From: Escherichia phage AV111
Direction: 5' to 3' (one strand)
Sequence record: OR352941.1
Length of the DNA: 64,000 nucleotides
Shown here piece by piece: positions 11,849 to 40,428 of this stretch (within the stretch, counting starts at the first letter, position 1; each line of letters starts with the position of its first letter). The notes beneath the pieces are model-generated. The model searched no databases and had not been told where the DNA came from. It was given only the letters and a program-made list of their open reading frames with translations. A program made the translations under genes and the position numbers.

Positions 11849-12660
11849 AATTCTAATTTATCCTTTTGAAATTCTTCGTCTAAATATGGGTTCCAACCCA
11901 TTTTAAACCTTTTGATGAAATTATCAATTCTAAATTTCGGTAAGTTTAAATCCGCAAAAATAGATGATTTACTTTTAAAATCTGGACCTAAATAATCATA
12001 TAAAATTTCTGCGTATTTTAACCATAATATATAAGTACCAGATTTAATTGCTCTCGGAGTTTTCCAAGGTTTTACACCATACATCGGATTTCCACTTCCT
12101 TTATGCCTGATAGAAGATGAAATTCCAATTTTAATTTTAGCTTCCTCTGTATGCGAAAATCCATGATGTGGATTTTCTTTCCAGTATTTTTTAGAAGCTT
12201 CTGATATTTTCTTTCTGGCTAAATTAGTATGATGCTTTCCATAAAATCCATGATTTTTACCTTTATTACGATTTCTTTTAATCATGGTTATTGATTGCTT
12301 TTTTCTAGTTTCTTTAGAAGGAGAAACACCATACGTTGTAAATTGACCATTAGCATATGCTAAATTAAAATACTCTTTATTCCATATATCTTTTTCTATA
12401 TTCTTTTGAAATTCAGCTTCAATGCTAGTTATTTGCTCATCTCCGACTAATTGAAAATATAATATTTCAACTTTCGGCGTTTCTTTCAACAGGGCTTTTT
12501 GAAATTCGGAAGATGACGAAGACGAATAATAAAATTTACCATTTTTATCAATAATATTCGTTCCGTCAAAAGTGCAATTAGTTTTACTTCCAATGTAATA
12601 ATATGGCGGGGTTTTAGCATTAATTCTATTAATAAATGATAGTTTATATACTACATTCAT
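11839..12660 (-). CDS. GIY-YIG (Seg-like) homing endonuclease with NUMOD3 repeats
   Basis: 273 aa; N-terminal VYKLSFIN...YYYIGS GIY-YIG-type motif; Lys-rich S.E.K.KIS repeats; inserted between nrdD and gene 49. Confidence 0.65.
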   Translation of the reverse strand: MNVVYKLSFINRINAKTPPYYYIGSKTNCTFDGTNIIDKNGKFYYSSSSSSEFQKALLKETPKVEILYFQLVGDEQITSIEAEFQKNIEKDIWNKEYFNLAYANGQFTTYGVSPSKETRKKQSITMIKRNRNKGKNHGFYGKHHTNLARKKISEASKKYWKENPHHGFSHTEEAKIKIGISSSIRHKGSGNPMYGVKPWKTPRAIKSGTYILWLKYAEILYDYLGPDFKSKSSIFADLNLPKFRIDNFIKRFKMGWNPYLDEEFQKDKLELCL

Positions 12661-13773: not shown

Positions 13774-14073
13774 ATCAATATCCTCTATAAAAGTTGCGAT
13801 GCGTGCGTTTCGCTTTGCGAAGCTGACGTTTAGTTGGTCGAACCGTAAATGGTCGTCCGGAGAAAAAATTCGGATCGGTTTTAATAAGCAAATACCAATC
13901 ATGCTTGCCATTTTTTAATAAACGGTACAATAATTTAACTTGCATAATAATCTCTTCCCATCTCCATATCAATTAATTCATTTATTGAAGGTTCATCATA
14001 ACACGTTTCTTCGTCGTTGTAAACTGTTTCGACGTCTGGCTCGACTGTCTCCCATCGAGCCGAATACCATGGC

Positions 14074-38762: not shown

Positions 38763-38790
38763 TTATTATGCCAAAAAGCCCCGACCTTTC
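38763..38790 (-). terminator. intrinsic terminator downstream of the structured-RNA region
   Basis: Minus AGCCCC-UUCCGAAAGGUC-GGGGCU then UUUUU. Confidence 0.55.
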
Positions 38791-39110
38791 GGAAGGGGCT
38801 AAGCCTTGCGGCAACCTTGTCGGGGTTCCACCTGCTAAGGCAAGTGTTTGTACGAAACGCCGGGATTCGAACCCGGTTATTAAGTAGTTGACGCTACTCA
38901 ATATTTTTAAAAGGCCATATCTCGACCATATCCGAACGTTCCGTCAAAAACGCTACTCGGCTTACGGCAAAGATATTTCCTCGAATCGATAATTCGGTGC
39001 GCCGTTTCTGCTGTGATGTAAGGGGATATTAACGAATCATAAAGATTTATTAAGACCAGTCCTTACTCAGGGAACATCAGTCCGACGACTTACCGGTAGC
39101 GACCCGGCTT
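38791..39110 (-). ncRNA. putative structured stable RNA region with tRNA-like acceptor/T-arm element (38851-38941)
   Basis: No ORF on either strand; perfect T-arm CCGGG-UUCGAAU-CCCGG at 38858-38874 flanked by pairing CGGAACG/CGUUUCG; further hairpins; bounded by tRNA-Arg region upstream and terminator 38763-38790 downstream. Confidence 0.35.
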
Positions 39111-39111
39111 C

Positions 39112-39456
39112 TTATTTTGGCATATCATCAATTTGCTCTCGACGCCGACGCCATAGATTAATCGCTTCATTGGCACATTCTGCGTTTGGTATATGACGGC
39201 AATAATATAATGATTCGCGTTTCTGGAACCGATGTTGTAATGGGATTTCGTTTAAAAGGTCTTTACGGTCAAAGTATTCAAAACTAGTTAACCCGGAACG
39301 GTTTTTAATGAACTTCCAATGTCCAAATTCATTTTGAACATAGATGTAATCGGCATGTTGGTATAACAAATTAATCAATCGGTCTGAAATAACTGTATCA
39401 TGTTCGTTAAAATAAAACGTTAAATCATGAACTACCAGATAAATATTGCCTTTCAT
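39112..39456 (-). CDS. hypothetical protein immediately downstream of tRNA-Arg
   Basis: ATG 39454-39456 with SD GAGGAAA; 114 aa. Confidence 0.45.
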   Translation of the reverse strand: MKGNIYLVVHDLTFYFNEHDTVISDRLINLLYQHADYIYVQNEFGHWKFIKNRSGLTSFEYFDRKDLLNEIPLQHRFQKRESLYYCRHIPNAECANEAINLWRRRREQIDDMPK

Positions 39457-39474: not shown

Positions 39475-39550
39475 TGGTGCCTCTAGAAAGATTTGAACTC
39501 TCACCATTAACCTTAGAATGATTATATGCTATCCATTACACTATAGAGGC
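39475..39550 (-). tRNA. tRNA-Arg (anticodon UCU), CCA encoded
   Basis: Hand-folded 76 nt cloverleaf: acceptor GCCUCUA/UAGAGGC, D-stem GUGU/GCAU, anticodon stem UAAUC/GGUUA with loop AUUCUAA, T-arm GAGAG-UUCAAAU-CUUUC. Confidence 0.75.
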
Positions 39551-40201
39551 AATTAAATTATTTACAATATCTTCTTTATAAACTTCAGCATAATGAAGTT
39601 CATATATTTCCCATCCTAATGATTTTATAATATCATGGCGTTCTTTATAATAAGGGGCCAAAATCTTTTTCTTAGGATTGGAGTAATGTTGGTTTCCATT
39701 AACTTCAATAATAATCTTTTTATCTATTAAAGCAATATCCGTGCAATACGCTCGGTTTTTAACCGGTTGGTATTCTTCAATAAATGAAATTCCATTTTCT
39801 ATTAATTTAGATTTCAAAAATTCACAAGGCACAGATTTAAATTTTGTATTTTTCTTCCAAGGATGTTTATCGGGGTTTTCATTCAACCATTTTTTCCGAG
39901 CATTAGATATTTTTATTCTAGCTTCCTCAGAGTGTTCTCTACCTAATGAAGCGGCTGACAATTTTTGTCTAGTCTCTTCCGAAATTACTACAGGAACACC
40001 AGTCTTTTTAGATACAACATACTGGTTTAAATTACCTGAAGCTATACGTGCTTTATTCATTGCTGCAATGGCTGATTTAGAACTTTCTTTATACAATTCC
40101 AATTTAGGGTTGGATTTACACCATCTAGTGTGGTTAGCCATCCATCCTTTAGGTTTATTAGAAATATCAAATTCCATATTACAATGTTTACAAATGCTCA
40201 T
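39536..40201 (-). CDS. homing-endonuclease-like protein: Zn finger + NUMOD3-like repeats + DUF559/Vsr-like PD-(D/E)XK nuclease domain
   Basis: ATG at 40199-40201 (track start is TTG 40207); CKHC...WC; SEETRQKLSAASLG and SEEARIKISNARK; C-terminal IDKKIIIEVNGNQH...ERHDIIKSLGWEI; sits between tRNA genes. Confidence 0.6.
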   Translation of the reverse strand: MSICKHCNMEFDISNKPKGWMANHTRWCKSNPKLELYKESSKSAIAAMNKARIASGNLNQYVVSKKTGVPVVISEETRQKLSAASLGREHSEEARIKISNARKKWLNENPDKHPWKKNTKFKSVPCEFLKSKLIENGISFIEEYQPVKNRAYCTDIALIDKKIIIEVNGNQHYSNPKKKILAPYYKERHDIIKSLGWEIYELHYAEVYKEDIVNNLIASIV

Positions 40202-40275
40202 TACCAATTATCTCCTATAAAATATAGGAGTATTTATTATTTGGATAGAGCACTTAATTTACTTCGTTTAAATTA

Positions 40276-40347
40276 CTGGCGCACTTTGACTCGAACCAAG
40301 ATAAAGGAGTTAACAGCTCCCCGTAATAACCTTTATACGATGCACCA
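40276..40347 (-). tRNA. candidate tRNA-Asn (anticodon GUU), CCA not encoded
   Basis: Hand-folded 72 nt: acceptor UGGUGCA/UGCGCCA (one GU), anticodon stem GGGAG/CUCCU with loop CUGUUAA, T-loop UUCGAGU; one G-A mismatch in T-stem, 3-bp D-stem. Confidence 0.4.
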
Positions 40348-40353
40348 TTTGTT

Positions 40354-40428
40354 TGGTGACCCTGGCTGGTTTCGATCCAGCTACCTATCAGTTATGAGCT
40401 GACAGCTCTCCCATTGAGCTACAGGGCC
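40354..40428 (-). tRNA. tRNA with CAU anticodon (elongator Met or Ile2), CCA encoded
   Basis: Hand-folded 75 nt: acceptor GGCCCUG/CAGGGUC, D-arm GCUC-AAUGGGA-GAGC, anticodon loop CUCAUAA, T-stem GCUGG/CCAGC. Confidence 0.7.

Follow-up and report, generated by a model that had tools for sequence, protein, structure and literature searches.

The gene-free stretch at positions 38791-39110 of the window, the 64,000-nt piece of Escherichia phage AV111 DNA (OR352941.1) that was analysed, is shown by comparison with phage T4 to carry the copies of two T4 RNAs, RNA D and RNA C, on the minus strand, which is also the strand of the genes around it. Covariation among homologues shows that RNA C is a 139-nt tRNA-like four-way junction, in which an acceptor-like stem and a T-arm are combined with one long and one short arm and followed by a U-N-C-A tail. 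The small stable RNAs of T4 have been described since the 1970s, so the region is already known and the RNAs themselves are not new. We consider it very probable that one joint explanation covers the stretch: RNA D and RNA C of T4 have their orthologues here, RNA C has a tRNA-like fold and would be excised by tRNA enzymes, and, as the weakest step, it may mimic the top half of a tRNA.

The initial annotation of this DNA, made from the sequence alone, had proposed that the stretch is a non-coding structured RNA whose T4 counterpart is a pair of small stable RNAs beside tRNA-Arg, and had left a different tRNA-like RNA as the alternative. The T4 segment 3' of tRNA-Arg aligns with the window nearly base for base, beginning where rnaD begins and continuing through the terminator, and rnaD and rnaC are annotated there in T4; the suggestion of T4 orthologues is therefore correct, the object is a known one, and the alternative falls away, this being the same RNA as that of T4. 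The rnaC orthologue lies at 38851-38989 (minus strand) and is identified by its identity to T4, its fold and a covariance model score of 176 bits. All 139 nt align with the annotated T4 rnaC (species 1 RNA, 139 nt; NC_000866.4 70908-71046) at 99.3% identity (138/139 bases), as they do with RB3 and others. The single difference from T4 is a U there and a C here in the 3' strand of helix P2, opposite the same G either way. The predicted fold is shared, and so are the neighbours, with rnaD upstream and a trailer and terminator downstream. T4 rnaD (species 2 RNA, 119 nt; NC_000866.4 71053-71171) is likewise immediately upstream of rnaC, and is annotated in NC_000866.4 as beginning 1 nt past tRNA-Arg and stopping 6 nt short of rnaC. 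Here the rnaD/rnaC junction is a 6-nt A/U-rich spacer, GAAUUA (38990-38995, minus strand; placed from the sequence and the T4 coordinates), which is the 5' leader of RNA C; a similar AAUUA-like spacer is found 3' of a tRNA ending in ...CCA in Moonvirus- and Karamvirus-type phages. The window phage is Mosigvirus-like, its nearest record being that of Shigella phage JK36 (Mosigvirus), with 98.6% identity over 501 nt. When a second copy of rnaC was sought in the window, none was present. In T4, RNAC and RNAD have been seen by northern blot as late RNAs and accumulate as stable species (PMC9697503), and publications from 2010, 2022 and 2025 call their function unknown (PMC3014915, PMC9697503, PMC12685909).

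Homologues were taken from GenBank phages, from pattern scans of IMG/VR and metagenomes, and from 78 loci found via the neighbouring dNMP kinase gene, which were searched with a covariance model built in this analysis. RNA C is present in about 750 phage records, all of them enterobacterial Tevenvirinae where a taxonomy is given. Its conservation greatly exceeds that of the sequence around it: 680 of 747 phage records reach at least 95% identity over rnaC, but only 107 of 802 do so over the whole 501-nt stretch. Divergent full-length copies were found in Moonvirus, Karamvirus and Tegunavirus, in Gelderlandvirus- and Kanagawavirus-type phages, and in further contigs. Few new variants were gained from the viral and metagenome pattern scans, and one candidate homologue, L034, was rejected as a chance match of the pattern scan. 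The Gelderlandvirus, Kanagawavirus and Citrobacter NM4.3 variants had been candidates for 5'-truncated copies with a small ORF, which was also rejected; the covariance model shows them to be full-length, with a different long arm and the UUGACG loop kept.

The support for the fold comes from pairs that have changed on both sides. With the plain MAFFT alignment of 28 distinct sequences 95.5% of the cells are paired, and 18 pairs have changed on both sides, compared to 7.8 +/- 1.6 after shuffling and at most 3 in slid controls. When the set is enlarged to 38 distinct sequences from several Tevenvirinae genera, 94.3% of the cells are paired and 45 of the 53 pairs have changed on both sides (22.1 +/- 2.6 shuffled, at most 19 in slid controls). 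This larger alignment was fitted to the model and so favours the stems; the plain MAFFT alignment of 28 sequences gives the same picture. These counts, set against shuffles and slid controls, should be read as a strong signal rather than as a calibrated test. Additionally, the minimum free energy fold of the single full-length 139-nt sequence (-50.2 kcal/mol, z -4.56) is the covariation-supported structure.

The acceptor-like stem of 7 bp, P1, pairs CGAUUCG (38982-38988, minus strand) with CGUUUCG (38853-38859, minus strand), and six of its seven pairs have changed on both sides. Here it is made of five Watson-Crick pairs and a tandem U.U. The pair at column 6 is A-U in 14 and G-C in 14 of the 28 sequences, with no exception, and the central U.U mismatches of most lineages are replaced by Watson-Crick pairs in three: Tegunavirus (CAGUCCG/CGGACUG), L068 (CGGUAUG/CAUACCG) and L080 (AGGUUCG/CGAAUCU). 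The T-arm CCGGG-UUCGAAU-CCCGG, with 5 bp, occupies 38860-38876 (minus strand). The initial annotation had recognised a perfect tRNA T-arm, which is real and carries compensatory changes, but had placed it at 38858-38874, 2 nt off. Its helix is 100% paired, and at alignment columns 134-146 a GC pair is seen in 18 sequences and a UA pair in another 18. The 11-mer GGTTCGAATCC has an expectation of 0.72 by chance in 64 kb with one mismatch allowed, and the motif alone is unremarkable; the significance of the T-arm region rests on homology and covariation, not on the motif. The tail UACA (38849-38852, minus strand) is a form of a U-N-C-A that, by comparison of lineages, is conserved in every lineage but one. 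It is U-ACA in the window and in T4 and U-UCA in Tegunavirus, and in three divergent lineages the closing stem is followed by UCCA, a true tRNA 3' end that is encoded (homologues at L068 14496-14648, L069 13898-14047/L070 14144-14294, and L080 15220-15368). The annotated 3' end of T4 rnaC falls after the UA of this tail (38851), giving ...GUA, and the independently annotated T4 ends lie just outside P1, by 1 nt on the 5' side and by 2 nt on the 3' side.

Where a tRNA would have its D and anticodon arms, RNA C has two other arms, one of about 65 nt and one of 10 bp. The long arm (38912-38981, minus strand; covariation and fold) starts with P1b, AGG/CCU, continues through four helices, P2-P5, and ends in a 6-nt tip loop, with a conserved UGG at 38917-38915 just 5' of the P1b 3' strand. 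An A/U-rich linker (38904-38911, minus strand) is followed by P6 (38878-38903, minus strand), a 10-bp hairpin with a 6-nt loop at the position of a tRNA variable arm; it is supported by covariation, with both sides changed in 8 of 10 pairs among the 28 sequences and in all 10 among the 38. The Enterobacter phage IME523-like L006, L017, L019 and L045 have UGCAUGC in place of the T-loop UUCGAAU and also UCG in place of the conserved UGG before P1b. Their joint loss of both motifs weakly hints at a tRNA-like elbow between GG and T-loop in the other members, with the caution that it represents a single evolutionary event.

The initial annotation had drawn the molecule differently, with a 7-bp acceptor-like pairing closing a 91-nt element that does not make a normal cloverleaf. 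This pairing is present, CGGAACG (38943-38937) with CGUUUCG (38859-38853), 7 bp including one G.U, and the 91 nt folded in isolation reproduce that annotation's non-cloverleaf picture (-28.4 kcal/mol, z -2.9). The full 139 nt, however, prefer closure by P1, and forcing the CGGAACG/CGUUUCG stem in the full-length RNA gives -36.9 against the minimum of -50.2, a cost of 13 kcal/mol. The stem shows zero compensatory changes in the 28 homologues: its third pair (3:70) is G.U in 14, G-C in 1 and an A.C mismatch in 13, and Tegunavirus breaks two further pairs. CGGAACG (38936-38943, minus strand, including the neighbouring base of its helix) is divided by covariation into the 3' strand of P5 (38941-38936) and two bases of the tip loop (38943-38942). 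The column of G51 within it covaries with U44 (UG 15, UA 10, AU 3) and not with the CGUUUCG strand. Covariation and thermodynamics thus agree in supporting that CGUUUCG pairs with the 5' end of mature RNA C and that CGGAACG pairs in a local hairpin. The idea that G3.U70 marks the RNA for alanine, its exchange for A.C then being isosteric covariation, was rejected; both columns covary with other partners.

These results bear on the proposal that 38943-38853 stands apart as a tRNA-like element of 91 nt with a 7-bp acceptor stem of its own, in effect a tRNA that is degenerate or unusual, for instance a tRNA-Lys or tRNA-Met of class II or with an intron. Besides the isolated fold, it can call on a weak Rfam match to tRNA-Sec (17 bits) and on two relatives in which ARAGORN and GenBank call the same part a tRNA. 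These are Enterobacter phage Ecl_id4496 (PQ824230.1; L004 1254-1348), where the 3' two-thirds of rnaC are annotated as tRNA-Met, and phage G29 (MK327940.1; L029 545-638), where they are annotated as tRNA-Lys(ttt) and where the loss of one base from the linker suffices to bring about the ARAGORN call. Yet the "anticodons" of these orthologues differ, Met (CAU) in the one and Lys (UUU) in the other, most loci have no ARAGORN call, and the mature T4 RNA is 139 nt, not 91. With its closing stem lacking compensatory change, the two strands of that stem covarying with different partners, and the 13 kcal/mol penalty, we regard this proposal as very improbable. The ARAGORN calls of tRNA-Lys and tRNA-Met in relatives were rejected as sporadic and mutually inconsistent, and the tRNA-Lys, tRNA-Met and 'hypothetical protein' annotations over rnaC look like a recurrent GenBank misannotation.

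Within 38791-39110 ARAGORN made no tRNA or tmRNA call and Rfam at gathering thresholds gave no match, in keeping with the earlier view that this is no normal cloverleaf; the covariance-model check that had been proposed for the stretch thus returned no family. Relaxing Rfam to E <= 10 brought only chance-level matches, the best being the tRNA-Sec match, which scores 17 bits where the threshold is 47 (E 1.3). ARAGORN run on rnaC of the window, T4, JK36, Moon, L068, L069, L072, L080 and L092 also made no call. Looking for the parts of a canonical tRNA, we find in RNA C the 7-bp acceptor-like stem directly adjoining a T-arm of 5 bp with its 7-nt T-loop, and find neither a D arm nor an anticodon arm with a 7-nt loop. 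RNA C therefore shares with canonical tRNA (RF00005) the 7-bp stem on a T-arm with the UUCGAAU loop, the U-N-C-A tail and the location in a tRNA operon, and its conserved GG could dock on the T-loop; it differs in being 139 nt long, in the tandem U.U of its stem and in scoring below threshold in Rfam. As for a tmRNA, there is no ARAGORN call, no tag reading frame and no Rfam match for RNA C. The tRNA-like domain of tmRNA, the bacterial Y RNA-like YrlA, the 3' tRNA-like structures of plant viruses and the MALAT1 mascRNA are examples of a non-decoding acceptor/T-arm module that is recognised by tRNA-processing enzymes. RNA C may be likened to these in having an acceptor/T-arm without decoding, with no match to them in sequence or covariance model. 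In every genus rnaC is located in or beside a tRNA cluster, often flush between two tRNAs. The linker after P1b (38904-38913, minus strand) reads C-UUUUAA in the window, a heptamer that also makes up the anticodon loop of E. coli tRNA-Lys(UUU). A role as a PrrC decoy through this CUUUUAA was rejected, as the sequence is not conserved outside T4-type phages.

What takes the place of the missing anticodon half is suggested by the loops of the two arms. The tip loop UUGACG of the long arm (38942-38947, minus strand) and the P6 loop CGUCAA (38893-38888) are 6 nt each and fully complementary, and five covarying loop pairs occur: UUGACG/CGUCAA, UUGAUG/CAUCAA, UUGGCG/CGCCAA, UUGCAG/CUGCAA and UUAGCG/CGCUAA. 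This is not an artefact of the alignment, because the covariance model treats both loops as unpaired. The loop covariation indicates a probable kissing-loop contact in RNA C. The long arms of Kanagawavirus- and Gelderlandvirus-type phages are unrelated in sequence, with length and loop kept, which fits an intramolecular contact that probably closes a ring; a dimer is the alternative. HIV TAR-TAR* and ColE1 RNA I-RNA II are known kissing complexes in which all 6 to 7 loop bases pair. RNA C resembles these in having two 6-nt loops complementary at all six positions, and differs from them in that both loops are in one RNA, probably closing a ring. We know of no counterpart among tRNA top-half mimics to a kissing-loop ring that replaces the anticodon half. 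A description of the contact was sought in the searchable literature and none was found, while parts of the secondary structure may appear in the original work of the 1970s.

The companion RNA is built in another way and has a fast-evolving hairpin. The rnaD orthologue (T4 species 2 RNA) occupies approximately 38996-39115 (minus strand), with ends inferred from the T4 coordinates, and consists of two conserved blocks, one at each end, with a variable apical hairpin between them; it folds at -33.1 kcal/mol (z -1.7). Fold and relatives define hairpin H1, GCCGG-GUCGCUA-CCGGU (39092-39108, minus strand), with 5 bp and a 7-nt loop. Its form among relatives is RCCGG-GUCGCUA-CCGGY, in which the closing pair varies between A-U, G-C and G.U and so covaries. 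They also define a long hairpin (38997-39089, minus strand) with the base GUCGUCG/CGGCG(C)AC and a hypervariable tip, of which four unrelated versions are found among near-identical phages, each foldable as a hairpin. T4 rnaD shares the 5' block AGAARCCGGGUCGCUACCGG...CCCUG and the 3' block AUCACAGCWGAAACGGCGCAC with the window, and differs in the sequence of the apical hairpin and in its 3' end, which is ...CACCA in T4 and ...CACCG here. The possibility that rnaD is a tRNA was rejected, there being no tRNA-like closing stem and the T4 ...CACCA end not being conserved. Only genomes of the T4 and Mosigvirus types have RNA D; in the others RNA C comes straight after a tRNA or a coding gene. In L069 (about 13834-13897) and the equivalent part of L070, the interval between a tRNA-Met ending in ...CCA and rnaC holds a GC-rich hairpin of ~60 nt, GGGGUGG...CCCACCCC, which sits in the slot of rnaD in T4 and may be the counterpart of RNA D there. 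In a published evolution experiment on E. coli ECOR34, 3/3 lines of a T4-like phage acquired one convergent rnaD SNP as they adapted to this host (PMC12685909); by our own reading of the published coordinates it falls in the hairpin region of RNA D described here.

T4 rnaD starts 1 nt after tRNA-Arg, whereas here an ORF of 114 aa (39112-39456, minus strand) lies between tRNA-Arg and rnaD. It matches phrog_3355 (unknown function), has no Pfam match, and has a good Shine-Dalgarno; its stop codon abuts the start of rnaD, whose 5' end overlaps it. The presence of this ORF therefore lowers our confidence in the 5' end of rnaD, and not in the homology. A different ORF ends in the tRNA-Arg/rnaD slot in L007, L008, L020, L040 and L044, and the slot is empty in T4, so that the junction looks like a putative recurrent insertion site. 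Further upstream are tRNA-Arg (39550-39475), tRNA-Asn (40347-40276) and tRNA-Met (40428-40354), all on the minus strand and called by ARAGORN and Rfam. These three (39475-40428) are the only tRNA genes in the window, compared to ten in the homologous cluster of JK36 and eight in T4. The position of T4 segB is taken by an ORF of 223 aa (39536-40207, minus strand) with weak matches to phrog_9084 (homing endonuclease), NUMOD3 and DUF559, which is not clearly GIY-YIG and which at its 3' end runs into tRNA-Arg, sharing the first 15 nt of that gene (39550-39536).

Downstream of RNA C is a conserved 3' trailer (38800-38850, minus strand) with the hairpins CACUUGC-CUUA-GCAGGUG (38846-38829) and GCC-GCAA-GGC (38812-38803). 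The trailer of L046 has an A-U in place of a G-C pair of the first hairpin and lacks the second hairpin. The trailer is followed by an intrinsic terminator (38773-38799, minus strand; sequence and relatives) with the stem GCCCCUUCC-GAAA-GGUCGGGGC and then UUUUU. The initial annotation was right about this terminator but about 10 nt off in its position, 38763-38790, the hairpin being at 38799-38778 and the U run at 38777-38773. The stem has a 2x2 mismatch (UU/UC) in the window and none in T4. The trailer segment CCCCGAC (38819-38825, minus strand) is complementary over 7 bp to GUCGGGG in the 3' half of the terminator (38779-38785), as it is in T4 over 7 bp with a G.U; this pairing is a possible alternative to the terminator hairpin. 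No late-promoter motif TATAAATA was found near rnaD or rnaC in the window. In L092 (about 12505-12530) a T4 late-promoter-like TATAAATA is located ~20 nt upstream of rnaC.

The claims that the stretch is without an ORF and is a non-coding structured RNA have both held up, in the folds, in the compensatory changes and in the lack of any long ORF. There are only mechanical ORFs of 24 to 49 aa, on both strands, and these together with the many records that annotate 'hypothetical protein (x2)' under the match are what a small-protein reading of the stretch can draw on. The substitutions in the RNA stems are compensatory, however, the 1-nt and 9-nt indels of close relatives fall inside these ORFs and break them, the ORFs start with TTG or run antisense through the terminator, and T4 is annotated with RNAs at this place. 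We give almost no credence to the idea that small proteins are encoded here.

How such an RNA might be produced is suggested by its position and its top half. RNA D and RNA C would be co-transcribed with the phage tRNA genes, in a transcript ending at the intrinsic terminator. The stack of acceptor-like stem and T-arm (7 + 5 bp), together with the A/U-rich leader and the U-N-C-A tail, could make RNA C a substrate for tRNA enzymes. RNase P would cut the 5' end, and an endonuclease and 3' exonucleases would trim back to the stem. A tRNA-like top half would then explain how a non-tRNA is cleanly excised from tRNA transcripts. Several observations speak against this explanation. The tail is UACA, not CCA, both here and in T4, and the T4 3' end is ...GUA. 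The tandem U.U weakens P1 in most lineages, and the T4 5' end is 1 nt upstream of P1. Additionally, the canonical T-loop is not strictly required, as L006, L017, L019 and L045 do without it.

Once excised, stable RNA C might mimic the top half of a tRNA and bind or titrate a host factor that binds tRNA, for example a defence nuclease; this is the weakest step of the model. The fast-evolving hairpin of RNA D could be a second surface of interaction with the host, one that is host-specific. Overall, we propose with low confidence that RNA C may be excised by tRNA-processing enzymes and then, as a top-half mimic of tRNA, interact with a host factor. T4 deletions of the tRNA region grow on laboratory strains, which counts against such a role. 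The main rival to a function in trans is a purely cis role in the processing of the operon, in which both RNAs and the trailer would serve the tRNA operon as elements for its processing and stability, providing entry for RNase P or RNase E and a block to 3' exonucleases, and the free RNAs would have no role themselves. It fits with the RNAs always being within or at the end of tRNA clusters, with ends that coincide with stable stems, and with the terminator directly 3' in T4-type phages. Yet 139 nt of folded RNA, kept at 95% identity or more by hundreds of phages together with covarying tertiary loops and a conserved arm length, exceed what a simple processing signal calls for, and ordinary phage tRNAs are processed without such elements. 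The accumulation of the RNAs as stable species (PMC9697503) and the adaptive SNP in rnaD (PMC12685909) also speak against it, and we consider a role in cis only to be unlikely. The stronger form of the trans proposal would make RNA C an undescribed class of fold, a tRNA top half, possibly with an elbow of GG and T-loop, joined to a kissing-loop ring, acting in trans as a decoy or adaptor, with the RNA D hairpin caught in the same arms race; we hold this tentatively, as a somewhat unlikely possibility.

If RNA C does act in trans, the candidate targets would be host factors that recognise the acceptor/T-arm of tRNA, for example a defence nuclease directed at tRNA, the enzyme that adds CCA, or a synthetase. 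What RNA C and RNA D do has been asked in T4 for some 50 years. What is added here is an architecture backed by covariation, which gives RNA C its true closing stem, a tRNA-like top half ending in the U-N-C-A tail, and kissing loops, and a family that extends across several genera of Tevenvirinae. With this model of the RNA C fold, the old T4 question becomes directly testable.
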